Origin: Candidatus Zixiibacteriota bacterium
GTDB taxonomy: Bacteria; Zixibacteria; MSB-5A5; UBA10806; 4484-95
DNA length: 21,973 bases
Reading direction: 5' to 3'
Assembly (NCBI GenBank): GCA_029932605.1
Contig: JAOZPT010000043.1
Span: 1 to 21,973 of the forward strand
This document shows positions 1 to 20,556 of the stretch, one piece after another. Under the pieces are notes generated by a model that saw only the letters and a program-made list of their open reading frames with translations, made no database searches and had not been told where the DNA came from. Made by a program: the position numbers and the translations under genes. The first letter of the stretch is position 1. The number at the start of each line of letters is the position of its first letter.

Positions 1-388
1 CCTTGAGATCTAATTTCCCCTCAACCAGCTCTTGAAATACAAGGTTAATAACCTCATTTAAAAAACGAACATTTGACCGAGATTCATCCGGCAGACCATC
101 TATCATTTGTGATGTAGTTGAGGATTTTCCTCGGTACCCATTCCGTCCTGATTTTTTATTGTTAACAACCGGTTTTGCCTGTTTTTTCCCTTTTTTAATT
201 TCTGTTTTCTTTTTTTGCGAAGCGGTTGTTTTCAAAGAAGGCTTAAGATGGTTATTGAAATGTTCTTCAAGCTGTTTTTTATCTATTTCCAGACCTCGCC
301 GGCTTGCCCATTTAATCAACCTCTCTGGTCGCCAGTTGATTTTTTTATTCAGCTCACCCGAAAACTCACTTGAGCAAATGATACACAT
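1..388 (-). CDS. Partial ORF (3' end off-window), not in the ORF track. N-terminal CxxC...HxxxH zinc/HTH-like module, basic linker, then a helical region. Resembles phage small-terminase-like DNA-binding proteins.
   Basis: Hand translation: MCIICSSEFSGELNKKINWRPERLIKWASRRGLEIDKKQLEEHFNNHLKPSLKTTASQKKKTEIKKGKKQAKPVVNNKKSGRNGYRGKSSTTSQMIDGLPDESRSNVRFLNEVINLVFQELVEGKLDLK..., open for 129 codons to the window edge. The ATG (388) directly follows the portal stop codon (TAAATG). The terminase-like label is inference. Confidence 0.75.
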   Translation of the reverse strand, partial: MCIICSSEFSGELNKKINWRPERLIKWASRRGLEIDKKQLEEHFNNHLKPSLKTTASQKKKTEIKKGKKQAKPVVNNKKSGRNGYRGKSSTTSQMIDGLPDESRSNVRFLNEVINLVFQELVEGKLDLK

Positions 389-1624
389 TTAAATAATCCC
401 AGGTTCGATTTTCTCGATACGTTCACGCGCTTCTTTGCGATCAAGTAAACCGGCCTGATACTGAGCAATTATGCTTTCAGCAATAATCTTCTCCGCCTTG
501 AACCTCTCAATGGAACCGAATACACGCCGATTGTCGAAAAGAACCTCAACCTCGCCTGGCAACCCTTTTAAAGCCATTTCCAATCCCACCAGCCACTTCA
601 AAAATCCTTTCGCTTTCTCCTGAACAGCCACTATCTGGCGCATCATGATCTCAAATTTAAAACGCGCCCAGGTCTGTGTTGTGCCAAACGAATAACCAAG
701 CATAAACGGGTCAAGATGCACGCCGGCACAGATATCCTCAACCAGCGCCCGATGATACAAATACCAGCTCGAGGCAACACCCTGACCTGAGGGACCAATG
801 GTGTTAATCTGAACATCATCCCAGGTCACGGCCGAATCAGAAGGCTTTAAATTTTTCATCAAATCCACCGTGCTGTCAAAATAGCTGTTAGCCCGCTGGA
901 TATAGGCTTCATCGCTTTCTCCGGGAAGTTTCTCCGGTTTATTAAGTTGAACCTGAACACGATGATAACCACTGCGCTCCAATGTCTGCGACATATCAAA
1001 TATCAGCTTTTGCTCAAGACGGGATATAAAACCGATAGAGTTAAGCATACTTACGCCACGTGGGTCATGAGCTGTGGCATCAAGGCCACTAAAATAGAAC
1101 GAACCCGGGTCAACCTTTATTCTACCGTCATCCCTCTCATAAAATATCTGCCAGTGATTGTTTTCACGCTCGAACGTTAAGTACTTATTATCGCAGAGGA
1201 CAAAATCAGCCAGCGCTTCCCCTGCTGGTGTTAATATCGCCTCTCCACTGAAACAGCCATCGATAAACAAGGAACGGAAAAACATGTTCACCACGGTCTC
1301 GATGCCACCTGCTTTCTGGTAGGATGATGGTGTCAGTAACCGGTCAATTCGAGCTATCAACTCCTTGCCAGAATCATCGGATAAATGGTCGAACTTGAAT
1401 TCAACCGGCGCCGAGCAAAGTCGCGTCCAAAGCCAGATAGCCCCCGACAATAGAGGAATATTCTCGGCTAAAAAACGATAAAGGGTCAAACGCTCCTGAC
1501 GCCTATAACCATAACCCGCCGGCAATTGTAATTCAAAACTTTTAAGCCTCGGTTTATCCCGCGATAACCTTAAATTGCTCTTTTTGTTTTTGCTGAGAAA
1601 TTCTTTCAATATTTTCTTGAACAT
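389..1624 (-). CDS. Phage portal-like protein (411 aa)
   Basis: Portal-type signatures: N-terminal LYRFLAENIPLLSGAI, central DPRGVSMLNSI (G-x-S-x-L), late ICAGVHLDPFMLG, and C-terminal GLLDRKEARE. Size is typical of portals. AGGAG RBS upstream of the ATG. Confidence 0.75.
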   Translation of the reverse strand: MFKKILKEFLSKNKKSNLRLSRDKPRLKSFELQLPAGYGYRRQERLTLYRFLAENIPLLSGAIWLWTRLCSAPVEFKFDHLSDDSGKELIARIDRLLTPSSYQKAGGIETVVNMFFRSLFIDGCFSGEAILTPAGEALADFVLCDNKYLTFERENNHWQIFYERDDGRIKVDPGSFYFSGLDATAHDPRGVSMLNSIGFISRLEQKLIFDMSQTLERSGYHRVQVQLNKPEKLPGESDEAYIQRANSYFDSTVDLMKNLKPSDSAVTWDDVQINTIGPSGQGVASSWYLYHRALVEDICAGVHLDPFMLGYSFGTTQTWARFKFEIMMRQIVAVQEKAKGFLKWLVGLEMALKGLPGEVEVLFDNRRVFGSIERFKAEKIIAESIIAQYQAGLLDRKEARERIEKIEPGII

Positions 1625-1750
1625 GTCCGCTCCTATTGGATAGCCGATTACAAAATGATCATTTCAAAAAACAGAACAAACACAAAATCAATGCGCTTTG
1701 CACTAATGGGCCATCAAATTCTCGACACGTTATTATCTTTTAAATATTCC

Positions 1751-1921
1751 GTCAGGTCGAACCCCGATTGGCATCATGTTATTATGCAAGGGTACATTAC
1801 CCTTCGACCAGATTCAATAAGAGTAACAAATGTGTTTCTTCGTCATTGCGACCTAAAGGTGAAGCAATACCGAAACATACGGGCAAATCCCGTCTGGCGA
1901 TGCCAGAAGTTACTTCCGGCA
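1751..1921. repeat. Cluster of palindromes and REP-like remnants in the divergent intergenic region
   Basis: GTCAGGTCGAA (1751-1761) pairs with TTCGACCAGAT (1803-1813). Hairpins: AAGGGTA-cat-TACCCTT (1788-1804), ACGGG-caaat-CCCGT (1879-1893), TCTGGC-gat-GCCAGA (1893-1907), TGCCAGAAG-tta-CTTCCGGCA (1901-1921). GTCATTGCGA...GAAGCAAT (1842-1868) resembles a common REP-type palindrome. Confidence 0.5.
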
Positions 1922-2008
1922 CAAACCATGATAAGCAAAAATTCTCCTGTTCCAAGAGATACAAAATCTATTATAATGATTCTGAAAATTTATAATGGGG
2001 AAGGTTAA

Positions 2009-3145
2009 ATGAAGCAATTTTTACTCGGCATGAAAATAGCAACCGTATTTTTTACCATAATTATATTATCATCCTGTTCACGGAAAGATATATTTTCCAA
2101 TTGGCCTGTTTTTAAGGGTAATAATCAGAGAACCTCTTATGCTGTAGCTCAGGGACCGGGGATATTATTACAACCGGATTGGATACTCAATGTTAATTCC
2201 CGCATTACATCATCTCCGGTTATATACGATGGTATATTATATTGTGGTACCGATTCAGGATTAGTTGCTATTACGTTAAAAGAAGCGAAAGAATTATGGG
2301 CATTCAAAACCGCCGGCAAGGTGTTCTCCACACCGTCTGTCGACGAACAAGCGATTTATTTCGGTTCCTGGGACGATAGGTTTTACGCTTTAGATCGCCT
2401 GGCTGGAAAGCTACTCTGGTCTTTCCAAGACATTGGCGTTTTTGATAGCTCACCTTTAGTTGATAGCCAGTATGTTTTCGTTGGCAATTTTTCCGGTTAT
2501 GTTTATGCCTTAAATAAAAAAAATGGTAATCTGGTCTGGAAATACAAAACCGGGCACTGGGTTGTAAGCTCGCCAGCCAGCTATGGAAATTTTATTTTTA
2601 TTGGAAGCTCCGACTCTTATTTTTACTGCCTTGACAAAAACAACGGTGAACTTTTGTGGCGGTTCGAAGCAGGTAAAGATATCCCCTCATCACCGGCGGT
2701 TGATAGCACAAACGAACGTGTTTATTTTGGCAGCCATGATAAACACATATATTGTCTTGATGCCTTATCTGGAGAAGAAATCTGGCGGTTTGCAACAAAC
2801 AGTGAGATATTTTCATCACCGGCGGTTTGTGATGATAAGATTTACTGCGCCTCTATCGATTCAGTGCTATACTGCATTAACGCTAAAACCGGAAAAGAAC
2901 TCTGGCGATTTTATGCTGGCAATACCATCTATAGCAGTCCCACAATCGCCTCGGATATGGTCTATCTACCCTCTTACGATGGGAACATGTATGTAATTAA
3001 CCGCCAGGATGGGGCATTGGAATATAGTCTCAACATCCAGAATGCCACAGATTCAACTCCGGCGATAAGCGGTAGATACCTTTTTATCGGTGATTACGCG
3101 GGAAACATCTATGCCCTTACGGAGCTTACCAGTGTCTCCAGGTAA
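2009..3145 (+). CDS. PQQ-like beta-propeller repeat lipoprotein (BamB/PQQ_2 family)
   Basis: Lipobox-like IILSSC, WPVFKGNNQRT N-terminal motif, and about 8 repeats of the type SSPAV...VYFGS.D..IYCLDA..G..IW.F. Confidence 0.9.
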   Translation: MKQFLLGMKIATVFFTIIILSSCSRKDIFSNWPVFKGNNQRTSYAVAQGPGILLQPDWILNVNSRITSSPVIYDGILYCGTDSGLVAITLKEAKELWAFKTAGKVFSTPSVDEQAIYFGSWDDRFYALDRLAGKLLWSFQDIGVFDSSPLVDSQYVFVGNFSGYVYALNKKNGNLVWKYKTGHWVVSSPASYGNFIFIGSSDSYFYCLDKNNGELLWRFEAGKDIPSSPAVDSTNERVYFGSHDKHIYCLDALSGEEIWRFATNSEIFSSPAVCDDKIYCASIDSVLYCINAKTGKELWRFYAGNTIYSSPTIASDMVYLPSYDGNMYVINRQDGALEYSLNIQNATDSTPAISGRYLFIGDYAGNIYALTELTSVSR

Positions 3146-5647
3146 AACAAGACGATACCTTCCACTACCATCGCTTTCAACAGCGACCCCCGGTACAGAC
3201 TCAAGCGCCTTCTTTAGCTTGTAAATATACTTAACCTGATTTGAACCATGATCCAGAAAACTTTTATCCAGCCAGCCCTCAAGTTTATCGGCATTATAAA
3301 GTTTAAAAAGGTAAGAATAAAGTTTTGGTTGAAGCAAAACTTTCATCCCACCTATTTCAACCTCGTACCTGGAACCGGCTTTTCTTGCTCGTAATGCTCT
3401 GCTTCCAGGTAGTGGTTTGTTTATGGTTTCCGTGCTCTTTTCAGACAATATATCCTGACATATTTTATACAGATTATTTGCTACCCGTTCTGGAACGATA
3501 GAGGAAACCGCATCAAAACCCGCATTGATGATATCCGAAGGAGTGAACATACCAGCGCTGTTGAGCCTCAATATATAATCCCTCTCAAGAAGCGGTACTT
3601 TTAATAAAGCCAACGTTAAACCCTCTTCGGTCAAACAATGAAAAAGGCGTTCAGCATAAATGTGCAACTTCTGACGTTGCTTATCATCCAGGTTTTGATA
3701 ACCACCAATATCAACCACAGCCTGCATCAAATTTGAAGCCCCCTCGCCAATATGTTTTATCCTTCCCCAGCCGATATCATATTTCGTTTCTAACTCCATC
3801 GTTGGAAGAGGTTGTATCATCTCGGCAATCAGCGAAAAGGTCGCAACCCTGGCCTGGTCCACCGGTATCTCTGGATTGGTAACAAGGACCGCAAGCTGTC
3901 CTGATGGTTTCTCAGAATACAAATCAAGCAGATGTGATAATGGTTCTACTATATCAAGTTTTTCTTGTGAAATCGACAGACGCTTCAAGATGAGTTTCTG
4001 GCCATCAGGGGTGTCAATTAAATAATATATCCAGCTTAAGAAATTATCACTCAATCCGTGTTGTCCAAAACCATCTTTTATAAGAATGGCAGTATTTAAA
4101 AATATATTGTGACGGGCGGTTGCTTTGCCTAACTCCGTGCAATAAAACCGGCATCCTTTAAATTTTAAAAACCCATGTTCAACCAATATGTCAATTGTTT
4201 TTTGTGGCACCCAGTCCCCATATTTCTCACAGTAACCGCGAAGGGTGTTTGCAAACATGCTCCTAATGTCATCGTAATCTTTCACTAACCCACAACTGGT
4301 CCATCTTAACAGCAGATTAGCAAGTTTCTCGATATCGAAAGGCTCCACCTTGGGATGAGCTGAACCATAAACATAAGAATCCCACAATACCTCCCGGCGT
4401 GTTTCATCATCAGCGATAACGATAGCCCTACCGAAATCATCGGTATGCCCAAATCGTCCCGCTCGACCTGCAAGCTGATTGTAATCATACATCACCAGAG
4501 GTTTTAATATAGGTCTTCCATCATAACCATCATAACACTTCACCGCCTCAATAAATACATTCTTGGAGGGGAAATTAACTCCCATTGCTAAAGTAGAGGT
4601 TGAAACCATCACCTTTAACTCACCCGACCTGAAACCAGCCTCTAAAATCCGTCTTGAGGATAGGCCTAAATCAGCATTGTGAAAACCAACACCCTTTTGC
4701 AGACAACTCAATAACTTACCCTTTTGCACAGTATCAGGGATATCATCAAGCATATTTAAAACATCGTTAACCGCCGATAAAGATAATAACTCAGCCAAGC
4801 CTACAGCCAGATTAACACAACCATTTCTGGTAGCGGTAAAAATTAACACTTGCTCGTCTTTATCCACAAGGTGTTTAACGCCTCGATACAGTTCTATAGG
4901 TATATCACAATCCTGCAGAATAATATCTGTACCTTTGAAATACTCTAAACCCTCACGGCAGTCGTTGTAACGCCTGTAAAAAAACTTGCCACCGAAAAGC
5001 ACGCCTTGATATAGCTCAACCGGTCTATTGGTTGATTTCAAAAGCGATATATTCAACCACTCCGAAAAAAGCCGACACTCATCAAGACCTCCAATCAAAC
5101 CGATCATCTGAATAGATGATGATATGTTCCTGACTTTGGAGATGGCAAGTTCATAGGCTAAGCCACGGTCGGTTGTTGTTACCAGTTGGAGTTCATCAAA
5201 AATAATAGTGCCTACCGACTCAAGCAATGAAAGACCGTTTACGGTTAACGAGTTAAACATCTCATACACAACGACCGCTATATCGTAAGTACCTTTGACA
5301 AATAAACGTTTATTCCCCGGGTAATCCGAGGTGACAGCTATTACTTTAAAACCGATTTTCCGGTATCGCTTTTTCAACTCCCAAAACTTCTCCGATGCCA
5401 ATGCCTTTAAAGGTACAAGGAATATGGCTCTCTTGTTATTCATCACTGAACGAACTGCCGCTAGTTCACCGCAAAAGGTTTTTCCAGATGATGTTGGTCC
5501 ATTAATCAGTACGTTATTCCCTTGTAAAAGACCAAAATCCTTTAAAGCCTCTACCTGTAAAGGCAGGAGAAAATCCAGGCCGCTCTCCCGCCAGCAATCT
5601 ACGATCCGCCGGGAAAAACCATATTTTGTTAGATTTTCTATTCGCAT
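3053..5647 (-). CDS. Ski2/Hel308-like SF2 helicase with an additional C-terminal winged-helix-like domain (about 864 aa)
   Basis: Motifs: Q (LLPLQ), I (GPTSSGKT), Ia (VPLKALASEK), II (DELQ), RPVEL, IV (LIFTATR), GVGFHNADL, V (STSTLAMGVNFP), VI (QLAGRAGR), plus CTELGK and an HhH-like region. Start reassigned to ATG 5647 (MRIENL...), 5 nt after the upstream gene's stop. Confidence 0.88.
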   Translation of the reverse strand: MRIENLTKYGFSRRIVDCWRESGLDFLLPLQVEALKDFGLLQGNNVLINGPTSSGKTFCGELAAVRSVMNNKRAIFLVPLKALASEKFWELKKRYRKIGFKVIAVTSDYPGNKRLFVKGTYDIAVVVYEMFNSLTVNGLSLLESVGTIIFDELQLVTTTDRGLAYELAISKVRNISSSIQMIGLIGGLDECRLFSEWLNISLLKSTNRPVELYQGVLFGGKFFYRRYNDCREGLEYFKGTDIILQDCDIPIELYRGVKHLVDKDEQVLIFTATRNGCVNLAVGLAELLSLSAVNDVLNMLDDIPDTVQKGKLLSCLQKGVGFHNADLGLSSRRILEAGFRSGELKVMVSTSTLAMGVNFPSKNVFIEAVKCYDGYDGRPILKPLVMYDYNQLAGRAGRFGHTDDFGRAIVIADDETRREVLWDSYVYGSAHPKVEPFDIEKLANLLLRWTSCGLVKDYDDIRSMFANTLRGYCEKYGDWVPQKTIDILVEHGFLKFKGCRFYCTELGKATARHNIFLNTAILIKDGFGQHGLSDNFLSWIYYLIDTPDGQKLILKRLSISQEKLDIVEPLSHLLDLYSEKPSGQLAVLVTNPEIPVDQARVATFSLIAEMIQPLPTMELETKYDIGWGRIKHIGEGASNLMQAVVDIGGYQNLDDKQRQKLHIYAERLFHCLTEEGLTLALLKVPLLERDYILRLNSAGMFTPSDIINAGFDAVSSIVPERVANNLYKICQDILSEKSTETINKPLPGSRALRARKAGSRYEVEIGGMKVLLQPKLYSYLFKLYNADKLEGWLDKSFLDHGSNQVKYIYKLKKALESVPGVAVESDGSGRYRLVLPGDTGKLRKGIDVSRVITDKKVSTAYRRS

Positions 5648-5652
5648 AAAAG

Positions 5653-5847
5653 TTACCCACAAAAACCCCAGCCACAATTCAAGCAACTGTAACAACCACC
5701 CAAAACAACTACAACCCCGTAACATTGAGGGCAATAAAGCCGATAGCAATAGTTACAAGAATACAGGATGCCATCAAAAGCAAGCTGGTTTCCGCAACGA
5801 CATTTCTTTTGAACCTTTAACAGGTCAATCTGCAACGCTTCACTCAT
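5653..5847 (-). CDS. Small Cys-rich Zn-ribbon protein (64 aa)
   Basis: Strong AGGAGG RBS. Nine Cys, in CRC, CNYC, CPQC, CYSCLNC and terminal FCG. Sits directly upstream of the helicase. Confidence 0.8.
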   Translation of the reverse strand: MSEALQIDLLKVQKKCRCGNQLAFDGILYSCNYCYRLYCPQCYGVVVVLGGCYSCLNCGWGFCG

Positions 5848-5855
5848 AACACCTC

Positions 5856-5900
5856 CTATTTTTGCTTTATCTCACTACACAAGATGCACCATGTGTTCAT
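5856..5900 (-). CDS. Putative 14-aa leader peptide / uORF MNTWCILCSEIKQK
   Basis: AAGGAGG RBS 4 nt before the ATG. Its TAG stop overlaps the AGGAGG RBS of the Zn-ribbon gene. It is the first ORF after the promoter at 5950-5978. Confidence 0.5.
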   Translation of the reverse strand: MNTWCILCSEIKQK

Positions 5901-5949
5901 CTAACCTCCTTAAAAAAACCAACGCCACAAAACTACACACCTGCACATT

Positions 5950-5978
5950 AATATAGTGAACATATGAACCCCTGTCAA
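5950..5978 (-). promoter_or_regulatory. Sigma70-type promoter of the uORF/Zn-ribbon/helicase operon
   Basis: Minus strand TTGACA-17 nt-TATATT. The spacer contains GTTCATATGTTC. Confidence 0.75.
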
Positions 5979-6036
5979 TCTTTTTTTTCGGCAAAATTCA
6001 CTTGACAGTTTAATTTTATTTATCTTCTTTTAAAAC

Positions 6037-6243
6037 ATGAGAATAAAAAACAAAATCAGGGAGATGCGACTTAAAAAGGGGCTCTCGCAAGCTGAACTGG
6101 CAGATAAAATTGGAGTTAGTCGCCAGACCATTATATCAATAGAAAAAAATATCTGTATACCCTCCACTTTTCTGGCGCTTAAACTATCAAAGCTATTCAG
6201 AAAAACCGTAAACGAACTGTTCACTATTTCCAAGACAAGATAG
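6037..6243 (+). CDS. XRE/Cro-type HTH transcriptional regulator (HTH_3)
   Basis: KNKIREMRLKKGLSQAELADKIGVSRQTIISIEK...LALKLSKLF..TVNELF is the classic small XRE pattern. Confidence 0.93.
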   Translation: MRIKNKIREMRLKKGLSQAELADKIGVSRQTIISIEKNICIPSTFLALKLSKLFRKTVNELFTISKTR

Positions 6244-6258
6244 TTGATTGGAGGTAAT

Positions 6259-6987
6259 TTGAAGAGAATTATTGTCCTATTTATTCTGTTACTGATATCT
6301 TCTGCCTTTTCCGCAGAGGAGAAAATCTTAATTTCCATTGGTGGAATAACGTCCAAAGACTGTATCAACAAAATTAAAACAGCCCTTGAAAACGTAGATG
6401 GAGTTCAATCAGCCGAGGTAAAACTGGAATCCTGTGATGCAATTGTTACTTACGATACCGACAAAACCAATGGGAAAAACCTTCTTAAAGCCATTGCAAT
6501 CTCCGGTTATAAAGTTCACGGTGTAAAAACCGTTCCTACAACCTCCGCTAGTGCTGGCTCTTCCTGTTCCAAGGTAACCAAAAAAGAACCCTGTGAATCA
6601 AAACAAAACCTCAAACAGTATCAAGACACTAACGTTACAGGCCATAAACAGGAGAGCCATCCCTGTCCGAGCATCAAGCAATGTAAAGAGCTAATCGAGT
6701 TCCACGAGGCCATGCATCCAATGCACATAGCGCTTTCTGAAAATGATTATGAAACCGCTCGTGAGTGCTATCCCGCACTGGTTGAAAACTCCAAAGCGTT
6801 AGAATCGATGCCCTGCGATGATAAATCTATTAAAGACACTAAAGCCTTCAAGGAAAAACGAACCTTGCTTCTTAAAACCGTCGACGAGCTGGGTAAAGCC
6901 TGCCAGGCCAAAGACGACAAAAAGCTGACTGAAGCCTTTGACAGAATGCATGAAGCCTATATAGAACTGGGAAAGTTGGTCAGGTAG
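6259..6987 (+). CDS. Exported heavy-metal-associated (HMA) domain protein with a His/Met/Cys-rich helical C-terminal domain
   Basis: GGAGG RBS, then TTG 6259. Signal peptide (AFSA). HMA fold ISIGGITSKDC..KIKTALENVDGV..AEV....A.VTYD...GY. C-terminal FHEAMHPMH and FDRMHEAY. Confidence 0.82.
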   Translation: MKRIIVLFILLLISSAFSAEEKILISIGGITSKDCINKIKTALENVDGVQSAEVKLESCDAIVTYDTDKTNGKNLLKAIAISGYKVHGVKTVPTTSASAGSSCSKVTKKEPCESKQNLKQYQDTNVTGHKQESHPCPSIKQCKELIEFHEAMHPMHIALSENDYETARECYPALVENSKALESMPCDDKSIKDTKAFKEKRTLLLKTVDELGKACQAKDDKKLTEAFDRMHEAYIELGKLVR

Positions 6988-7019
6988 TAAACTGAGTTCG
7001 TTTACGTGTGTCAAATTTT

Positions 7020-7045
7020 AAAGCGGGTTGAACGGCCCGCTTTTT
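7020..7045 (+). terminator. Rho-independent terminator
   Basis: AAAGCGGGTT-gaac-GGCCCGCTTTTT, a GC-rich stem with T-tract downstream of the HMA gene. Confidence 0.85.
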
Positions 7046-7130
7046 GGTTTTCATTTCATTCACAACTCAAATGTCTTCACCAAAAATTCTTGACTTTAAC
7101 TTACTAAAAAATTATTTATTTCAAGTTATT

Positions 7131-7895
7131 ATGAACAAACCCGCTTACCTTGATGAACCCATATTCTGTTTTACCTCCGATGTTGACTGGGCAAGCGAGG
7201 ATGCACTCCAGATTCAGCAGGATATTTACGACAGATATGGTATTCAGACAACATACTTTGTAACGCATAAAAGCCCGCTTTTAGAAAGATGGCATAAAGA
7301 GGGCAAAATCCAGTTGGGGATACATCCCAATTTCCTGCCCGGAAGCAGTCATGGCAATACCATTGATGAAGTTCTCGATACCGTCATGAAATTTGCACCC
7401 AGGGCAAGGTGTTTCCGCTCGCATCGATGCTTCGATGTGGCTCCTGTAACCGATGCTCTGGTCAAAAGAGGACTGCTTTATGATTCAAATCTAATCACCA
7501 ACCTCCAGCAGGGAATCTCTCCATTAAAACACGAGTCCGGTTTGATACGATTCCCTTGTTTTTATGAAGACGGCATACATTTTAAATGGAGACGGAGCTG
7601 GGACTTTAGAGAGTTTGAAAAAATATTCAATCAACCTGGTCTTAAGATAATAAGCCATCACCCCATGATAACGGCAATGAATGTCACAACTGCGGAAAAA
7701 TGGGGCATTTTGAAAACTAAGTTTCCACCGGGGGTCTGGATCAAGATGTCAAAAGAGCAATTGCTCGAAAACGCATGCAGAGAACCAGGACCAAAAAACT
7801 TCCTGGAGGATATGATAAAATTTGTTCTCGAAAACAAATTTTCGATCATGTCCATGGAGGAACTATATCAGAATTTTGGTAAAACAATCATCTAA
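7131..7895 (+). CDS. Polysaccharide deacetylase-like protein (WbmS-like, CE4/NodB fold)
   Basis: FTSDVDWA, TYFVTH, LGIHPNF, FRSH, YDSN and HHP motifs. The likely start is ATG 7131, downstream of TTGACT (7090-7095). Confidence 0.8.
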   Translation: MNKPAYLDEPIFCFTSDVDWASEDALQIQQDIYDRYGIQTTYFVTHKSPLLERWHKEGKIQLGIHPNFLPGSSHGNTIDEVLDTVMKFAPRARCFRSHRCFDVAPVTDALVKRGLLYDSNLITNLQQGISPLKHESGLIRFPCFYEDGIHFKWRRSWDFREFEKIFNQPGLKIISHHPMITAMNVTTAEKWGILKTKFPPGVWIKMSKEQLLENACREPGPKNFLEDMIKFVLENKFSIMSMEELYQNFGKTII

Positions 7896-7979
7896 CACAT
7901 TTTCATCTTACATAATGTATATAACCGAACTTTCCGGGTTAAAAAAATCAATCTACATATTTATAGAAAGGGGAATTGA

Positions 7980-9692
7980 TTGCCCGGCAACGATCCAACC
8001 GGCAAAGTATTAGTACTCGGCAGTGACTTTAAAAACTACCGAAGTTGCTTGACCATAATCCGTTCTTTTGGACGTCATGGACTTGAGGTTCATGTAGGCT
8101 GGTGTTCGGATGATGTAGCTCTCAGCTCGAAGTATGTCGCCAGGGTACATGATATACCTTCATACTCACCTACCGATGATTCCTGGAAAGAAAAACTTAT
8201 CTCCATCGTCCAGGCTGAAAATCTCGATCTTGTCGTTCCGGTCAATGAACAGGCTTCAACCCCCCTTGAAACTCACCGCTCGGATTTTGGAAAACTTGAT
8301 GCAATATATCTATTAAACGAGCAGGCGTATGACGTTGTCTTTGATAAATTCAAAACGAATGAATTGGCCAGTGCGTTAGGTATACGAATACCTAAGGGGA
8401 AAAGGGTTTCTGGGGAAGACCAAACGGAGAATATCCTGTCTGAGTTCAACTTCCCGATTGTCTTAAAGCCAAAAGTCTCATTCAGCCTCGATAATCTACG
8501 CATAAAAAATTACGTATACAAGGCATATAACAAAAAAGAGTTTAGCTCTTGCCTTAAGCTTCTCCTTAATAGCGGAGATGTCCTGGTCCAGGAAAATTTT
8601 GTTGGTATCGGTGTGGGCATCGAATTTTTGGCAAGTCAGGGTAATTTACTGCATGCTTTTCAACATCAACGAGTGCATGAACCACTCATGGGTGGAGGAA
8701 GTTCTTACCGTAAAAGCGTTCCTTTGCATCCTGAATTATTAACCGCCACTGATAAGTTATTAAAGGCACTGGATTATACAGGGGTGGGAATGGCCGAATT
8801 TAAAGTAAATTTCAAAACAAAAGACTGGGTATTTTTAGAAATCAACGGCCGTTTCTGGGGCTCTCTTCCATTAGCAGTCTCGGCTGGGTCCGATTTTCCA
8901 TATTTTCTTTATCAGCTCATGGTAAAGAAAAAACAGCAATTCCCACAAACATACAAAACCGGATTATATTGTCGTAACACTATCAGAGATTTCGAATGGA
9001 TTATAAAAAATATCGGTGCCGATAAATCCGACCCATCCCGCAATACCCTTCCAAACCGCCAAGTTGCCAGAGAGATTTTTAATATCCTCGCATTCCGCGA
9101 GAAAAACGACACCTGGGTTATCGATGATATCAAACCTGGTTTCATCGAATTAAAGCACTTTTTATCTTTAATGTTCGATAAAATAAGATTAGCCATTTTA
9201 TCATATTCACCGATTCGGTGGTTAAGGACATATAAAGCCAGGCTGGCCCTGAGAAAAGCCAGGACAATTCTCTTCGTCTGTTTTGGCAATATATATAGAA
9301 GTCCTTTTGCTAAATATTACGCTCAAACTGTTCTCAGCGGTTCGCTAAAAATAAATTCAAGCGGTTATCATAACAGAAGTGGCCGTGTATGCCATCAAAA
9401 AGCAATTGATGTTGCTCATGAATTTGGGATTGACCTCAAACATCATCGCTCTAGTGTTATTACCGAGGATATGGTAAAAAAAGCTGATATAGTGCTTACT
9501 TTTGATAAACAAAACCGCAATATTTTGATCGCTAAATTCCCTTTTGCCAGAAAAAAAATATATTACCTGGGGATTATATCATACAGGGGAGCCGTTATAA
9601 TTGATGATCCGGTCGACAGCAATATTTATACGGTTAGAGAGATTTTTAAAACAATAAAAAGAGCTATCGATTCCTTTAAGAACGAAAAATAA
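7980..9692 (+). CDS. ATP-grasp ligase fused to a C-terminal low-molecular-weight protein-tyrosine-phosphatase/ArsC-like domain
   Basis: DKFKT, FPIVLKP, VLVQE, GVGMAEFK and FLEINGRFWGS (ATP-grasp). ILFVCFGNIYRSPFA, SSG, ADIV and IDDP (LMW-PTP fold). Confidence 0.88.
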   Translation: MPGNDPTGKVLVLGSDFKNYRSCLTIIRSFGRHGLEVHVGWCSDDVALSSKYVARVHDIPSYSPTDDSWKEKLISIVQAENLDLVVPVNEQASTPLETHRSDFGKLDAIYLLNEQAYDVVFDKFKTNELASALGIRIPKGKRVSGEDQTENILSEFNFPIVLKPKVSFSLDNLRIKNYVYKAYNKKEFSSCLKLLLNSGDVLVQENFVGIGVGIEFLASQGNLLHAFQHQRVHEPLMGGGSSYRKSVPLHPELLTATDKLLKALDYTGVGMAEFKVNFKTKDWVFLEINGRFWGSLPLAVSAGSDFPYFLYQLMVKKKQQFPQTYKTGLYCRNTIRDFEWIIKNIGADKSDPSRNTLPNRQVAREIFNILAFREKNDTWVIDDIKPGFIELKHFLSLMFDKIRLAILSYSPIRWLRTYKARLALRKARTILFVCFGNIYRSPFAKYYAQTVLSGSLKINSSGYHNRSGRVCHQKAIDVAHEFGIDLKHHRSSVITEDMVKKADIVLTFDKQNRNILIAKFPFARKKIYYLGIISYRGAVIIDDPVDSNIYTVREIFKTIKRAIDSFKNEK

Positions 9693-9826
9693 ATATCTCG
9701 ATTCAATTAAAATACAGTGGGTTTCCCGCCCCTGGAACTCGATTAATTGGCATCAGGCTTTTATAATTTAATAACTTTTCAAAAATCCTTTGCCAATAAA
9801 ACATTAAAATCAGATATTATTTAATT

Positions 9827-11062
9827 ATGCCGATACGCCACCTAAAGGAATATATCTCTTATATAAAACTATTCTCCCCTAATGCCCGTCTCTATCTTGC
9901 TGGTACTTTTTTTATGGGTTTCTCAAACCAGATTCTCTGGATGCTTTATAATCTTTACCTAAAACAACTTGGTTTTGCCGAGGGAACAATGGGTGAGATA
10001 CTTTTTTTCGAGGGCTTGGGAACTGTACTTGCGGCAATACCGGCTGCCATCGCCATAGATTATATACGGCTTAAAAACGTCATGGTCATTGCCAACCTCA
10101 TAAATACACTCTCTTACGTCTTCTTAACTTTCGTTATCGAGATTAAAGTTCTTTATCTTATTGCCGTTATCACAGGTGCTGGCTGGACTGTTCATTTCAT
10201 AGCAGCTTCACCTTTTTTCATGCGCAACTCCACTACAACCGAAAGGACGCATCTTTTCAGCTTCAATTACGCGCTTGATATGATGTCAGGATTAGTAGGG
10301 GCCTTGATAGGTGGTTATATTCCGATACTCTTATTCCAGAAAGGTGTGCCACTTATCATTGGTTATCGTGTAAGTTTGATATTTGGGGCAATTATGACAT
10401 TATCGGCGGTTATTTTCTATATTCGTATAAAAACTCCCAGGCCTATCAAAACAGGCAAAATAGACTGGCGAAATTATATCAGGTCAAAAAATTGGAAAGT
10501 AACCTTTAGGTTGTGCCTACCACAATTTTTCATGGGTATGGGTGCTGGATTGGTTATACCGTTTCTAAATATCTATTTTGTTAACCGTTTCACCCTCGAT
10601 TCATCCTTTATAGGTAAGATATACTCGGTGGGGCAGCTTTTTATGGTGATAGGTTTTCTCGCCGGCCCTATTTTTGGGAAAAAAATTGGCCTTGTTAGGA
10701 CTGTATCGTTCTCTCAGTTAGCCTCGATACCGTTTTTCCTAATTTTAGCCTTTGGCTATTATCTTCCACCGGTAATTATAGCTTTCTGGTTCAGGGGAAG
10801 TCTTATGAATATGGCCTGGCCTCTTTACAACAATTTTGCCATGGAGAAAGTTGAACCAAACCAACATGCAACCACCAACAGTTTCTTAAGCCTGGCCTGG
10901 AATTCCTCCTGGATGATTTCCACTTTAATCGGTGGACGACTTATTGAATATTACGGCTTCAAGTTGGTGATGCTTATTACAATCTACCTTTATGTCTCAG
11001 TCAGTATAATGATTCTTTCCTTCTTCAAAAAAGACACGAAAATAGGAATATCAAAAAAATGA
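9827..11062 (+). CDS. MFS transporter
   Basis: About 12 hydrophobic segments. YNLYLKQLGF..G.MG pattern, motif-A-like AAIAIDYIRLK and GPIFGKKIGLV. Confidence 0.9.
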   Translation: MPIRHLKEYISYIKLFSPNARLYLAGTFFMGFSNQILWMLYNLYLKQLGFAEGTMGEILFFEGLGTVLAAIPAAIAIDYIRLKNVMVIANLINTLSYVFLTFVIEIKVLYLIAVITGAGWTVHFIAASPFFMRNSTTTERTHLFSFNYALDMMSGLVGALIGGYIPILLFQKGVPLIIGYRVSLIFGAIMTLSAVIFYIRIKTPRPIKTGKIDWRNYIRSKNWKVTFRLCLPQFFMGMGAGLVIPFLNIYFVNRFTLDSSFIGKIYSVGQLFMVIGFLAGPIFGKKIGLVRTVSFSQLASIPFFLILAFGYYLPPVIIAFWFRGSLMNMAWPLYNNFAMEKVEPNQHATTNSFLSLAWNSSWMISTLIGGRLIEYYGFKLVMLITIYLYVSVSIMILSFFKKDTKIGISKK

Positions 11063-11126
11063 TCAAAAAATATAATATTTGTTTAAAATTTAAAATCTCG
11101 CTTGATACCTATTTTATATTTCACCT

Positions 11127-11336
11127 TTATTGCAATCTGATTACATTTTCCGCCTTTAAGCCTTTGGGACCGGTAACCACGTCGTACTGAACTTCCTCTC
11201 CTTGGTTAAGTGATTTAAAACCATCCCCTTTTATCGAGGTAAAATGTACAAAAATATCATCCTGACCTGATTCATCAGGAATAATAAAACCAAACCCCTT
11301 TTTCCTGTCAAACCATTTCACCTTACCAACAGGCAT
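11127..11336 (-). CDS. cspA: Cold-shock protein (CspA family)
   Basis: GKVKWFD..KGFGFI (RNP1) and DIFVHF (RNP2). AAGGAG RBS. Confidence 0.96.
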   Translation of the reverse strand: MPVGKVKWFDRKKGFGFIIPDESGQDDIFVHFTSIKGDGFKSLNQGEEVQYDVVTGPKGLKAENVIRLQ

Positions 11337-11411
11337 AAAAGTACTCCTTTTAGGAATAAGCTTAAATATGATACTCCATAGAATAATGCGGCGATCTCCC
11401 CTCTCTTAAAT

Positions 11412-11440
11412 ATAATAACTTCCATTTTCTTTAAAGTCAA
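11412..11440 (-). promoter_or_regulatory. Sigma70-type promoter of the csp gene
   Basis: Minus strand TTGACT-17 nt-TATTAT, implying a 5'UTR of about 70 nt. Confidence 0.65.
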
Positions 11441-11587
11441 GAACTTTCTATTCTAATCACTCACTTTTTTATCTCTATTACCCTAAAAAAACATCCATGT
11501 GATTTCCATATGACCATGCGGTGATTTAATACTTTAATTTTAAAGCCTATCATCTCTAAAAAAACAGTAATACTCGAGGGGATTATT

Positions 11588-12094
11588 ATGTCAATAATAT
11601 TCGTTGACCATCAGACTCTTGCCAAACTCGCCGGTTATCCGTCCGATTCTATCTGGCAAAACGAGAAATCCAAAAATGATACTGACTATCTGGCTTTTTT
11701 GGATACGGTAAGACAGGCGGTAAACTCTCTTGATGATAAGCACCGGCGGGTTATCGAGATGTATTTCTTTGAAAATCTCAGCCTTCACCAGATCGAGCAA
11801 GAAATGGAACAGAATTGTCATCAGGTGCAGAAATTGCTCCGGGAGGCTATGCTGATGTTAAAATACTCCTTAACCGATGTCGTCCGTAATCGCTGGCCCG
11901 AACGTTTCAAGGAGGTCAACCGATGCCCGATCTGTAAACATCCACAAAGAAAAACAATCGAAAAAATAATAAAAAGTAAAAAGGAGGCTGAAAGCTGGGG
12001 AACGATAAGTAAGAGACTTAAAAAGAAAGTGGGCGAAACATTCAACCCACCCTCAACAATGATAAACCATATAAAATATCACAAGAAAGGGTAA
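11588..12094 (+). CDS. Sigma70 region-4-like HTH protein fused to a C-terminal CxxC...HxxxH zinc/HTH module
   Basis: VRQAVNSLDDKHRRVIEMYFFENLSLHQI....V..LL..A..ML (region 4), followed by CPICKHPQRKTIEK...WGTISKRL...NHIKYH. GAGGGG RBS. No sigma region 2 is recognisable. Confidence 0.8.
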   Translation: MSIIFVDHQTLAKLAGYPSDSIWQNEKSKNDTDYLAFLDTVRQAVNSLDDKHRRVIEMYFFENLSLHQIEQEMEQNCHQVQKLLREAMLMLKYSLTDVVRNRWPERFKEVNRCPICKHPQRKTIEKIIKSKKEAESWGTISKRLKKKVGETFNPPSTMINHIKYHKKG

Positions 12095-12097
12095 ACG

Positions 12098-12328
12098 ATG
12101 GCTGGAGATATTCATCATTTGCAAATACGAACTGACCACAGAGTTCGTGAGAAAATAAAAAAGCTGGCTATGACACATCATCGTTCAACCGCCGATATAG
12201 TCCGCACATCTTTGGAGCTGGGTTTAAGGTTATTAGAAAAGCTCTTAGAGGCGCAATCGGAAATGGTAACCGAGTATATACAGCTTCTAAAAAAGGAATC
12301 GAGGTTGAAATCTAAAAAAAAGAAATAG
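12098..12328 (+). CDS. Ribbon-helix-helix (CopG/Arc-like) DNA-binding protein
   Basis: Strand HLQIRTD, helix REKIKKLAM, helix STADIVRTSLELGL. Starts 3 nt after the upstream stop. Confidence 0.65.
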   Translation: MAGDIHHLQIRTDHRVREKIKKLAMTHHRSTADIVRTSLELGLRLLEKLLEAQSEMVTEYIQLLKKESRLKSKKKK

Positions 12329-16298: not shown

Positions 16299-16760
16299 TC
16301 ATCTTAATACAGAATTAAAAGCGACTAGACCTGCAGCATATTCAGGATCACCGTGGGCAAGATCGTTCCAGACGATCACCATAGCGATGCATCGGGCAAG
16401 CCCAATCATAATAAGGCCAACCATGTATTCTGGATAAGCAGGGAAAAAAGCTATTGCCAGAAAAAACATTAATATCGGCCCGATTACCCAGTTTTGTAAT
16501 AAGCTTAAACCCAGAATTTTAAAGTTCTTAAACACCTCGCCCATTTCCTCATAACGAACTTTAGCCAAAGGAGGATACATCATGAGGATCAGTCCAACAG
16601 CGATTGGAATATTGGTAGTACCCACGCTAAATTGATTCCAGAAATCTGCTACGCCCGGGTAAAAATACCCTCCGCCAACACCGATTCCCATCGCTAAAAA
16701 TATCCAGATAGTTAGATATCTGTCCAAAAAGGAAAGTCTTTTAATGGTCGAAGAACTCAT
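16299..16760 (-). pseudogene. acr3: Truncated ACR3 arsenite efflux transporter (N-terminal 153 aa only)
   Basis: [53 protein letters not shown]. It stops at AFNSVLR, whereas ACR3 proteins are about 350 aa. No continuation is recognisable downstream. Confidence 0.9.
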
Positions 16761-16812
16761 GCTTTATTTACTTTCATTTACATTCTCACTCAATGTCAAT
16801 CATTTCTCCTGG

Positions 16813-17505
16813 TTACAAACTAATACGAAAAATATACACCAGTGAATAATATAAACCTACCAGAACGAAAATAACGCCCGTGATACGTCGTGCCCACAAC
16901 TCCACCTGAGTGAGCCTGTTGAACACCTTGCTGACAAGCCTGGTGCTAAGACCTATCAGGAACGCAAACAGTATAACTGGCAAAGAAGTACCAATCCCGA
17001 ATAACGAGGGTAATATGAAACCGGAATCATACTTTATGGATAAGGGGATAAGACTGCCAAAAAAGAGTGCGGCTGAAATAGGACAGAATGAGAGCGCAAA
17101 AATGATTCCGAGCAGAAACGCGCCCCAGATACCGTAATCCTCAACGTGTCCCTGCATCCTCCGACTCAATCCAAATCCAGTAATATTTAATGGTAAAAGT
17201 TCCAAAAGAAAAATCCCTGCTATAATCAGAATTGGGCCAAGGTATTTATTAATATTTTCCTGTAAGAAATAGGATAGTTTCGGGATGGACAGAGCGCCTG
17301 CAACAAGTATAATTCCAAGAATCAGATAAGCAAGCATCCTGCCGAGCATATAAAGAAGGCCCGATAGAAAAACAAGGCGCGGATTCGCTAACCGCTTTCC
17401 GATATAGGAGATTGCGGCTATATTTGTTGCCAATGGGCAAGGACTAATTGAAGTCAAAATCCCTAACCAGATTGCTGATGTAATGCCCAGAAGAAATGAG
17501 TCCAT
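16813..17505 (-). CDS. arsG: ArsG-like (DsbD/CcdA-type) membrane protein, aromatic arsenical efflux permease family
   Basis: LGILTSISPCPLATNIAAISYI and FALSFCPISAALFFG. ATG overlaps the upstream stop (TGATG). Confidence 0.8.
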   Translation of the reverse strand: MDSFLLGITSAIWLGILTSISPCPLATNIAAISYIGKRLANPRLVFLSGLLYMLGRMLAYLILGIILVAGALSIPKLSYFLQENINKYLGPILIIAGIFLLELLPLNITGFGLSRRMQGHVEDYGIWGAFLLGIIFALSFCPISAALFFGSLIPLSIKYDSGFILPSLFGIGTSLPVILFAFLIGLSTRLVSKVFNRLTQVELWARRITGVIFVLVGLYYSLVYIFRISL

Positions 17506-18026
17506 CAATTCTCTCCAAGTAAGGCGCGAACCTCATCCTGCACGTATTTTAAAAAGGCCTTCTTATTTCGAAGAAGCTCCCACACCTTTTCAAGATTCTT
17601 CCACTCGATTTGCTTTCCATTTTCAACCTTTGAAATAATGAGCGATTTGGTATAGAGCTGGTAGTCCTCTACAAAACGCTTATTTTGAGGTAAATCAGTG
17701 TTAATGACAATCCATTCCAGTTTCCCCTCTTCCAACTCATTAGCAAAACCTTGTTCAATAGCTTCCTGTGAGTATGCCTCAATTTTTCTACATGATGAGC
17801 AACGCCGTGAGCCATGAAAATAGTATGCAATGACTTTATGGAGTTGCTCCGGTATACCATCTGTTTCTATAGAATCTTTAACTGTAGTGATTGTGTCGGG
17901 AATCTCCTTAGTTTCGATTTTTTCTTCCTGATTAATATCTTGCTTATTGGCCTCTTGTCCCAGACAAACAGCGCTGGCAAGAAGAAACATTACAAATACT
18001 GTAATAGTTACTGCTTTTAGTTTCAT
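17505..18026 (-). CDS. arsF: ArsF-like exported thioredoxin-fold protein
   Basis: Signal peptide, AYYFHGSRRCSSCRKIE and WKNLEKVW. Located directly upstream of the arsG-like gene. Confidence 0.75.
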   Translation of the reverse strand: MKLKAVTITVFVMFLLASAVCLGQEANKQDINQEEKIETKEIPDTITTVKDSIETDGIPEQLHKVIAYYFHGSRRCSSCRKIEAYSQEAIEQGFANELEEGKLEWIVINTDLPQNKRFVEDYQLYTKSLIISKVENGKQIEWKNLEKVWELLRNKKAFLKYVQDEVRALLGEN

Positions 18027-18133
18027 TTTTGATCACTCCTAATCTTTTAATTTTTAATGGTCTCACTAACCTGTTAAAATATGTCTTAGCCGTTATGAGG
18101 TAATCGATTGGTGGTTTTTATTCATTCCAAGAT

Positions 18134-18610
18134 CTAAACCATCATCCTTTTCAACTGTTCAACCGATGGCACTTTCCCCATGACATTTATTACCCCGTTA
18201 ATAACTAGAGCCGGAGTTGAAACAGGGCCATAATTGGCAATTTGTTTCAGGTCGCGGATGTGCTGAACATCAGCTGGCAATTCAAGCTCTGCAACTGCAG
18301 TCATTACATGGTTTACTAACTCCTCACACCGCGGACACCCCGGACCGAGAATACGTATCTCTATTACACCACGCTTTTCCTCAATTTGCTCTCCCAGAAA
18401 GCGACGGTATTCGAGCAATAAAGCTTCAGCATACTCGGATTCAGCTTCGATCGGGATATAATTCGACCGTCTAGTCCGGTTTATTATCTCATTCATGATC
18501 TTCTCAGGCTCGGAAAGATTTAGCGATTGAACCTCGATAAACACTTTCTTCAGACCGATCATACCTACCCGATGCGACCCCACCTGTATTTGTGTTATGT
18601 TATATTCCAT
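18134..18610 (-). CDS. Thioredoxin-fold (MTH895-like) protein with an extra N-terminal domain
   Basis: C-terminal IRILGPGCPRC...STPALVING...GKVP. About 80-aa N-terminal extension (VGMIGL...NYIP...YAEALL.EY). Confidence 0.82.
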   Translation of the reverse strand: MEYNITQIQVGSHRVGMIGLKKVFIEVQSLNLSEPEKIMNEIINRTRRSNYIPIEAESEYAEALLLEYRRFLGEQIEEKRGVIEIRILGPGCPRCEELVNHVMTAVAELELPADVQHIRDLKQIANYGPVSTPALVINGVINVMGKVPSVEQLKRMMV

Positions 18611-18636
18611 TATTCTTGTCTCTCTTTACTAAAACC

Positions 18637-18876
18637 TCAAATTGATGAAAGTAACCTTTTGACCTCATCTATATCCGGGACTTTACCAACAATCTTCACT
18701 GCCCCATCGACAACCAGCACAGGTGTCATTATTACACCATACTCCATTATCTTCTGTATATTTGTAACCTTCTCGATCGTGCATTCCAAACCAAGTTCCT
18801 TTGTTGCAATCTCTATATTGGCTGCCAATTTTCTACATCTGTGACATCCAGCGCCCAAGATTTGAATCCTCATCAT
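18637..18876 (-). CDS. Small redox-active disulfide protein (MTH895-like thioredoxin family)
   Basis: IQILGAGCHRC...EKVT....I.EYGVIMTP.LVVDG..KIVGKVP. GGAG RBS before ATG 18876. Confidence 0.9.
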   Translation of the reverse strand: MMRIQILGAGCHRCRKLAANIEIATKELGLECTIEKVTNIQKIMEYGVIMTPVLVVDGAVKIVGKVPDIDEVKRLLSSI

Positions 18877-18889
18877 TGTCTTTCTCCAA

Positions 18890-20074: not shown

Positions 20075-20135
20075 CTTTTAATCCATTATTCGGATAGACA
20101 AATATGCCTATCCTAACACCTATTATATTTGCTTT

Positions 20136-20474
20136 TTAAAACCCTCTCCTTTTTAACGTAGATAGATCCCTTTTCGCCTTTACTTCAATAACATTAGTGA
20201 TACATTTTATGAAATCGACAATACACGGCGCCTCAAGTCTGTAATAGACTTTCAACCCCTCCTTGCGTCCGGAAACCACTCCCGCTTTCTTCAACACCGA
20301 TAAGTGCTTCGATATCGTCGAATGATCAACCTCCAAGTTCCTGTTAAGCTCGCAAACGCACTTCTCACCTTTGGCAAGCATCTCCACAATGAAAAGCCTT
20401 GTTGGATGACTTAAGGTTTTTAATACCTCGGCTTTTAAAGTTGCCAGTCTGTAGTCGCGATTAATAATTTTCAT
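20136..20474 (-). CDS. arsR: ArsR/SmtB family repressor
   Basis: LKTLSHPTRLFI...GEKCVCEL......STISKHLSVLKKAG.V..RKEG..VYY. ATG 20474 is chosen because the promoter lies within the longer ORF call. Confidence 0.92.
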   Translation of the reverse strand: MKIINRDYRLATLKAEVLKTLSHPTRLFIVEMLAKGEKCVCELNRNLEVDHSTISKHLSVLKKAGVVSGRKEGLKVYYRLEAPCIVDFIKCITNVIEVKAKRDLSTLKRRGF

Positions 20475-20475
20475 A

Positions 20476-20513
20476 CTATGTGGCAATATAGTAACATAGC
20501 CATATAAAGTCAA
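20476..20513 (-). promoter_or_regulatory. ars operon promoter with an overlapping inverted-repeat operator
   Basis: TTGACT (20508-20513)-17 nt-TATATT (20485-20490). Inverted repeat CTATGT-N12-ACATAG (20476-20499) straddles the -10. Confidence 0.75.
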
Positions 20514-20527
20514 AAGATTTTCAGCTG

Positions 20528-20556
20528 TTGACACTGTTTTTTTTTAAAGATATAAT
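20528..20556 (+). promoter_or_regulatory. Consensus sigma70 promoter of the pncB-like/pncA operon
   Basis: TTGACA-17 nt-TATAAT. The GTG start is 6 nt downstream with no RBS. Confidence 0.85.

Follow-up and report, generated by a model that had tools for sequence, protein, structure and literature searches.

We analyzed a 21,973-nucleotide stretch of DNA from a Candidatus Zixiibacteriota bacterium (contig JAOZPT010000043.1 of assembly GCA_029932605.1), termed the window below, which begins inside a cluster of phage-type head and DNA-packaging genes. We find that this cluster is a host-inherited phage head and DNA-packaging set, which has been kept intact since the common ancestor of the Zixibacteria and which is domesticated and not a prophage. 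This follows from its distribution across the phylum, from congruent trees, from the ratios of nonsynonymous to synonymous substitution (dN/dS), from intact motifs, and from the fact that no tyrosine integrase was found at the locus and no tail gene by six tail profiles in the searched genomes. A preliminary description, made from the letters of the window, had proposed one domesticated head-packaging system rather than an intact prophage, and orthologues, trees, selection, the split loci of several genomes and the lack of a tyrosine integrase at the locus support that proposal. The window corresponds to the whole of contig C34 in the source genome G000, an assembly of 2.53 Mb in 101 contigs with a completeness of 99.96%.

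A phage-type head module inherited with the host

The packaging unit lies on the minus strand and is headed by a portal gene (389..1624, minus strand, 411 amino acids), which matches two portal families, PHROG 3753 (E 4e-30) and PHROG 30703 (E 8e-18), in agreement with its earlier reading as a portal. No Pfam family matched this gene; portal homologues that are 38-47% identical to a related viral portal bear precomputed PF04860/PF06074 assignments. Those portal homologues that have an organism name come from candidate division Zixibacteria, in which the host is accordingly placed. Next to it lies the 5' part of a small-terminase-like (TerS-like) gene (1..388, minus strand), which comprises an N-terminal CxxC...HxxxH zinc module, a basic linker and the start of a three-helix domain. 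The gene runs on into contig C18 and encodes 178 amino acids overall, with the three-helix domain being conserved. Its zinc module is present in 17/23 genomes of the taxonomic order of G000 (hereafter, this order) and in 0/29 genomes outside. We infer the TerS identity of this small gene from its place between the portal and large terminase (TerL) genes and from its helical domain; profile searches gave it no name, its alignment gave no meaningful sequence match in the PDB, and its own profile does not match the TerS of viral contig L231.

The end of C18 shares a 24-base overlap with the window, in which one base is mismatched. Contigs from run X2 support the join: a 3.6 kb contig (depth 7.2) reaches 322 bases beyond the C18 end, and a second contig of equal depth covers window position 96. 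Contig depths, which here give no copy number, are similar across the module and its flanks in four runs. On C18, the minus strand continues with the rest of the TerS-like gene, TerL (PHROG 2, E 2e-25), a protease-like gene, a DUF2730 membrane gene, and scaffold-like and cement genes, followed by the major capsid protein (PHROG 3922, E 2e-64; PF25209) and by proteins of 493, 125 and 270 amino acids. Neither the capsid alignment nor the gene for the 125-amino acid protein gave a meaningful PDB sequence match. The start of contig C43, which is linked to C18 by synteny with G001 and G004 only, holds the final two module genes, coding for a signal-peptide-like protein and a small membrane protein, and then a gene that reads as citrate synthase-like. 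The DNA to the left of position 1, to which the preliminary description had pointed, indeed carries TerL, protease, cement, capsid, propeller and head-tail adaptor genes on the overlapping contig (the latter two are described below). The idea that the head genes are dispersed fails for G000, where they span ~11 kb, contiguous and in phage order, and holds for several other genomes, in which they are split over loci. PEP-CTERM genes recur between TerL and protease or beside the portal in several families (L086:5986-6447, L029:12296-13132).

The catalytic motifs of the module are intact. HK97-type prohead proteases are expected to have invariant His, Ser and Glu residues, and all three are invariant in 36/36 sequences of the protease-like gene. 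The Walker B motif, the coupling motif and three nuclease Asp residues of TerL are present in 45/45 sequences, and its Walker A motif in 44/45. Reading frames are intact as well: alignments cover over 85% within a single open reading frame (ORF) in 53/55 cases for the portal, 52/53 for TerL and 53/54 for the capsid protein.

Among 61 genomes, 57 contain the portal, 56 the capsid and 57 TerL. A capsid profile finds its target in 199/208 phylum genomes with a completeness of at least 90% and in 18/19 families, with one match in 192 genomes and two in 7; the two matches in G057, the only one of these seven that was inspected, are two pieces of the gene. The single-copy orthologues that a domesticated system should leave in related genomes are thus present nearly always once, with no patchy strain-level spread. 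Four of the 9 genomes missed by the capsid profile (G071, G100, G107 and G050) retain other head genes, and in G134 and G027 portal and TerL were not found either; G074, G144 and G173 were covered by the capsid profile search only. Gene order is kept in 45 loci of 35 genomes, among which we found no additional conserved cluster. The flanks, whose ORFs in relatives were clustered rather than annotated individually, vary, and breaks are frequent between TerL and protease. Portal and capsid are 93 kb apart in G021, 106 kb in G048 and 35 kb in G019.

We compared the history of the head genes to that of a host marker, rpoB, in those 45 of the 61 genomes in which portal, TerL, capsid and rpoB were each covered to 75% in the loci. 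The concatenated portal, TerL and capsid tree has 35/42 splits in common with the rpoB tree (1000 label shuffles: mean 0.18, maximum 3), and 0/31 of its splits with support of at least 0.95 contradict any supported split of the rpoB tree. Every tree recovers each of the 10 multi-genome families as a monophyletic group. The dN/dS ratios (Nei-Gojobori over 17 pairs, of which only those with dS <1 were kept) are 0.034-0.103 for the portal (8 pairs), 0.048-0.094 for TerL (7 pairs), 0.032-0.151 for the capsid (9 pairs) and 0.035-0.147 for rpoB (6 pairs). The head genes are therefore congruent with the host marker and under purifying selection (0.03-0.15) like rpoB, as proposed for a domesticated system.

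A prophage remnant, or a phage that recurrently integrates at a hotspot, would account for the contiguous, phage-ordered head genes of G000 and for L228, an IMG/VR entry filed as viral that contains the module. L228 is likely a piece of chromosome filed as a virus, however, because its identity to the module of G035 is 82-97%; as this entry indicates, databases may wrongly list such modules as viral. The presence in 199/208 genomes, the tree congruence, the rpoB-like dN/dS, the intact frames, the changing flanks and the splits together make a prophage remnant or a recurrently integrating phage highly improbable. In line with this, we found no complete prophage with an integrase at the left: a tyrosine recombinase gene (PF00589; serine recombinases were not searched) is absent from C18, C34 and C43 and, in 4 other genomes, from the 50 kb on either side of the module, so that the locus lacks a tyrosine integrase in 5/5 genomes. 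A Pfam scan of the 28 window ORFs likewise found no integrase, replication-initiator or endolysin gene, which bears out the earlier statement that integration, replication and lysis genes are missing on the portal side.

A predicted adaptor, the apparent lack of a tail and possible functions

The 270-amino acid protein is, as predicted from its structural model (predicted local distance difference test score, pLDDT, of 87), a head-tail adaptor. The top 11 fold matches of the model are all phage neck or portal-tail chains, with the Mu neck subunit as the best match (Z 9.9, root mean square deviation 2.9, 92 aligned residues) and HK97 gp6 at Z 8.2; Z values of this size are modest given that the domain is helical, and the weight comes from the uniform match list. 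Two beta-domains, akin to side domains of tail tubes and baseplates, are inserted in the adaptor, and NF052337 matches at residues 48-128 (E 3e-8, below cut-off); the fold matches also include the YSD1 tail protein (Z 7.4). The model of the 493-amino acid protein (pLDDT 92) contains a sialidase-like beta-propeller and a beta-sandwich. Foldseek matched it to sialidases and lectins, to gp424-427 of Bacillus phage G and, at rank 8, to a single portal-tail chain of a podovirus (TMq 0.33), and a putative "nozzle" identity for this propeller is a lead only.

Profiles for tail sheath, tape measure (TIGR01760), baseplate J, Phage-tail_3 (PF13550) and head closure (PF05521) found matches in 0/5 genomes each (G000 and four single-contig genomes), and a Dit profile in 0/3, while Caulobacter or other controls gave matches; a divergent short tail could escape profile searches on this few genomes.

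We consider it probable that the module specifies a viriform that works like a gene transfer agent (GTA), with tailless or short-necked particles that would be filled with host DNA for gene transfer. Here, a regulator would bind a common operator and thereby activate two units at once, portal-TerS-TerL and protease-to-adaptor. A prohead would form from capsid, scaffold and portal and be matured by the protease, and TerL would cut and pump the DNA. The cargo would be pieces of the chromosome, because the locus has no replication origin or integrase and because, in most families, a DNA-binding head is missing from the TerS-like gene. The adaptor with its two inserted beta-domains and the sialidase-like propeller may then close the portal and bind recipient cells, replacing a long tail.

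Several observations weigh against a GTA-like function or against parts of the argument above. All the evidence is drawn from sequences and structural models. The characterized GTAs that we consulted all encode some tail or baseplate part; none was found here, and delivery is thus unexplained. No endolysin was identified, a genome-wide endolysin search not having been made, and a holin-like gene has no profile support. The fold matches of the propeller are generic. The zinc module on the TerS-like gene in this order could confer sequence specificity. TerL alone shows one supported conflict with rpoB. Finally, G049 (one contig, 99% complete) has portal and capsid, and no TerL was found in it, a hint that heads may be useful without packaging. 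The G049 locus (G049:C1:1555000-1571000, L036) contains portal, protease, capsid and adaptor genes, a propeller in two ORFs, and host genes between portal and protease.

The domesticated head could have another job, as a device for DNA storage or disposal, as a secreted decoy or adhesin particle, or as a compartment tied to the signal-peptide-like protein. Such a role would be compatible with the lack of a tail or endolysin match and of a TerL match in G049, with PEP-CTERM genes between TerL and protease in some families, and with a conserved gene with a signal-peptide-like N terminus that, by eye, closes the module in 27 genomes. Yet related viruses also have signal-peptide-like genes after the capsid, which may hence be inherited head accessories, and the conservation of the TerL ATPase and nuclease motifs (44-45 of 45 sequences), of the portal and of the adaptor argues for DNA packaging and release. 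We therefore regard another job as unlikely. A little less likely still is a host-owned anti-phage or piracy device, in which heads would divert invading phage DNA or borrow phage tails, similar to capsid-forming phage-inducible chromosomal islands (PICIs) but chromosomally fixed. The head-only gene content and the tail-tube-like side domains of the adaptor (the NF052337 and YSD1 matches above) would suit such a device, and a lysis enzyme would be unnecessary if the phage lyses the cell. However, the head-closure profile found no match in the five genomes, no tyrosine integrase or replicon was found at the locus, and defense systems and satellites spread patchily, in contrast to the strict single copy and the host-like evolution of the module. 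A GTA-like viriform is thus the reading that we prefer.

Candidate regulators, operators and a linked helicase

Between cspA and a PH-domain (bPH_3) gene, the plus strand of the window contains a two-gene unit, for which the preliminary description had named the domains and the neighbors that we now find matched. The first gene (11588..12094) encodes a sigma-70 region 4-like helix-turn-helix (HTH) domain (Sigma70_r4, E 7e-6) with a C-terminal CxxC...H zinc module and is a candidate activator; the second (12098..12328) encodes an Arc-like ribbon-helix-helix (RHH) protein (Arc/RHH, E 1.5e-4) and is its conserved partner, adjoining it in 29/30 loci by clustering, with a shorter piece in the 30th. 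A weak ArpU match of the sigma-r4/Zn gene (E 8e-4, below cut-off) would presumably fit a phage late activator. The sigma-r4/Zn profile gives a best E of 1e-16 or lower in 200/208 genomes, and 6 further matches (E 1e-9 to 1e-13) were taken to be ordinary sigma factors. In a tree of 26 genomes, 15/23 of its splits are common with rpoB and no supported conflict is seen, and dN/dS is 0.16-0.44. Where portal and sigma-r4/Zn gene are on one contig, they lie within 13 kb of each other in 7/11 genomes, which represent three families, and are separated by 67 kb to 1 Mb in the remaining 4/11, in a sample that favors near pairs and in which related genomes are non-independent.

We compared the zinc modules of the TerS-like and sigma-r4/Zn genes, which had been described as sharing a CxxC...HxxxH motif. 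The module profiles align at 91.9% probability, a score that is reached by 0/200 column shuffles with the four ligands fixed and by 1/200 with CxIC and both His fixed. A loose CxxC...HxxxH pattern also matches 16 other frames of the genome, and a direct hidden Markov model cross-search between the two modules is weak (E 4.6 in the genome). The shared motif thus passed the shuffle test, and the two modules are likely homologous, though remotely. Against a link of the regulator to the head genes, the zinc module on the TerS-like gene is confined to this order (17/23 versus 0/29). Co-loss was rejected as proof of such a link, since the profile search shows the regulator kept in 8/9 capsid-negative genomes, 4 of them retaining other head genes. 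The claim that the pair belongs to the head system therefore gains from linkage and from the shared zinc domain and loses from G134, which has the pair with no head genes found; on balance we place it slightly below even chances. With the same reserve, the sigma-r4/Zn protein would be the best candidate for the activator and the RHH protein for its autorepressor.

Motif discovery in 29 portal and protease upstream regions of this order returned the consensus gTnCAannnGCATTtg, with a log-likelihood of 197 compared to 44-49 for 3 shuffles. This candidate operator is located 79 nucleotides before the portal start (1688..1703, minus strand) and recurs before the protease gene. It scores at least 8 in 19/21 portal and 7/7 protease regions of the training set, and a held-out protease region of G000 scores 8.7; that threshold is reached in 0/82 regions before other genes and in 0/48 portal and protease regions of other families. 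In families f5 and f10, two of the other families within the phylum, different motifs are common to both units (9/10 and 3/3 regions, respectively; patterns chosen by eye), while a single motif for all other families pooled is weak (log-likelihood 83 versus 48-53). Because both units have an upstream motif in common, lineage by lineage, one factor likely regulates both, with a binding site that drifts from lineage to lineage. This lineage-specific candidate operator common to the portal and protease units is new here. When the genome was scanned for the operator matrix, no additional regulon member emerged that has a ribosome-binding site at a suitable distance. The two-gene unit itself is preceded by three direct RTGAH repeats with a period of 11-13 nucleotides (11499..11525, plus strand), which form its candidate operator and are found in 17/17 upstream regions in this order, in 1/10 from other families and in none before other tested genes; the triple-repeat pattern by itself occurs 14 times in the genome. 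The gTnCAannnGCATTtg operator is not found before the sigma-r4 gene, nor the triple repeat before head genes.

A Hel308/Ski2-like superfamily 2 helicase is encoded upstream of the portal (3053..5647, minus strand; NF040935, E 1e-67, below cut-off). It is present in 54/61 genomes and was not found in family f6. When both genes are on one contig, it lies within 25 kb of the portal in 20/22 genomes, which represent five families. The helicase gene of G048 is located 10 kb away from the capsid gene, and in G047 it is distant. The recurrent linkage of a putative Hel308-like helicase to the head module is new here, and we can only guess that the enzyme may act on DNA that is to be packaged or recombined. 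A Cys-rich Zn-ribbon gene (5653..5847, minus strand) lies immediately upstream of the helicase gene; it has no family match and belongs to a cluster found beside the helicase in 7 genomes.

The other genes upstream of the portal are mostly ordinary cellular genes, as had been noted, with the exception of the helicase, which travels with the module. They encode a pyrroloquinoline quinone (PQQ)-type propeller, a DEAD helicase (the gene above), HTH, HMA, deacetylase, ATP-grasp, MFS and cspA proteins, followed by PH-domain, WG-repeat, TauE, ArsR/ArsP and other proteins. In the ORF at 7980-9692, which comes after a WbmS-like deacetylase, a low-molecular-weight protein tyrosine phosphatase domain is fused to ATP-grasp. 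An ORF of the bile acid/arsenite transporter family (PF01758; 16299-16760) has just 153 amino acids and is apparently truncated; it closes an ArsR/ArsP/thioredoxin cluster (16299-20534).

Viral relatives and comparison with known systems

Scans of IMG/VR with single capsid and portal sequences found no close viral relative, and a search with the capsid alignment found 5 loci. The nearest viral relatives are tailed, with capsids that are 34-35% identical to that of G000; for L229/L230, the capsid reaches 35% and the portal up to 39% identity to Zixibacteria. These viruses and L231/L232 share the portal, protease, cement and capsid families, and also their order, with Zixibacteria but continue into Dit-like, sheath (both in L229/L230) or other tail genes, none of which was matched in G000. 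In L229/L230, the protease is fused to an ATP-dependent DNA ligase, and 3/35 zixibacterial proteases are likewise fused (L044:9808-12141, L209:11665-14025, L222:7983-10187), with remnants in 2 more, in family f5; one fusion has a weak LigD phosphoesterase match. This prohead protease-ligase fusion, which is new here, is read as an ancestral feature that is being lost. In an unrooted capsid tree of 49 rows, a single branch with an SH-aLRT (approximate likelihood ratio test) support of 100 and a stem of 0.77 separates the 21 zixibacterial rows from all others.

A related capsid is found in 27/30 genomes of the phylum of Ca. Hinthialibacteria OLB16 (Hinthialibacterota, the phylum of G216), where a cluster of scaffold-like, cement, capsid, Dit-like and protease-like genes is conserved among host genes (L239-L247, L249, L252, L255, L260, L266, L267). 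This module, also new here, likely represents a second domestication. L272:5881-16281 and ~60 other clostridial loci contain a compact cluster in the order TerS-TerL-portal-protease-cement-capsid that includes baseplate genes and is trimmed to varying degrees. In Oscillospirales it was found in 8/61 sampled genomes, one of them weak, and is a candidate source of the gut GTA-like activity reported in those families. A fuller picture would be a phylum-wide tailless GTA, in which a portal-capped head is sealed by the adaptor and a glycan-binding propeller, is controlled by a sigma-r4/Zn activator whose zinc domain also occurs in TerS, and is fed by the Hel308-like helicase, the same phage lineage having been domesticated separately in Hinthialibacterota; taken as a whole, we hold this to be possible and rather doubtful.

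The openly accessible literature (subscription papers excluded) contained no report on Zixibacteria together with gene transfer agent, viriform, or phage portal and major capsid, and none on Zixiibacteriota with capsid; "Zixibacteria" and "GTA" co-occur only on other topics, as judged by listings, and PMC13669383 does not mention the name. The zixibacterial head system has thus apparently not been described before. Retention of a head module in 96% of the genomes of an uncultured phylum, in the manner of a core gene, points to an old and strongly selected function, and its missing tail to either a new DNA delivery route or a head for DNA packaging that has been put to a new use. Further systems might be sought in the way that the related module in a second phylum suggests.

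We compared the module to known systems. Encapsulins likewise rely on a host-owned HK97-type shell gene, to which the zixibacterial module adds a portal, a catalytically intact TerL, a protease and an adaptor. Capsid-forming PICIs have a similar head-only gene set, with which infection would have to take a different route, but are mobile, with integrase and replication genes and a patchy spread, whereas the zixibacterial module is fixed, vertically inherited and has no tyrosine integrase at its locus. GTAs are described, in excerpts of the review by Kuhn and Koonin (PMC9953437), as vertically inherited, multi-locus, caudoviricete-derived systems that package random host DNA; the few known ones are mostly alphaproteobacterial, and the frequency of virus domestication in prokaryotes is called an open question there. 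The GTA of Rhodobacter capsulatus (RcGTA) and our module are alike in their Caudoviricete-derived head genes, vertical inheritance, several loci and lack of self-replication, according to the same excerpts. A TerS without a DNA-binding domain, as in RcGTA, has been proposed as a GTA mark (Sherlock et al., PMC6854486, in excerpts); it would fit most zixibacterial families, if the small gene is TerS. RcGTA also has a separate activator locus (GafA). In contrast, the zixibacterial capsid and portal are of other families (PHROG 3922 / PF25209 and PHROG 3753), the module is near-universal in a whole phylum, and tape measure, head-closure and Phage-tail_3 megatron, which are features of the RcGTA family, were found in 0/5 genomes each. 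The module is therefore not a member of the RcGTA family. A GTA-like element of Faecalibacterium prausnitzii has a second operon with baseplate, fiber, holin and endolysin genes, for which we found no counterpart in Zixibacteria. Its main operon, at ~10.5 kb, is close in size to the zixibacterial module and, as far as excerpts of its report describe it (10.1101/2024.11.15.623857), encodes a TerS without a DNA-binding domain, TerL, portal, scaffold and capsid, has no replication genes, and gives rise to 40 nm particles without visible tails.

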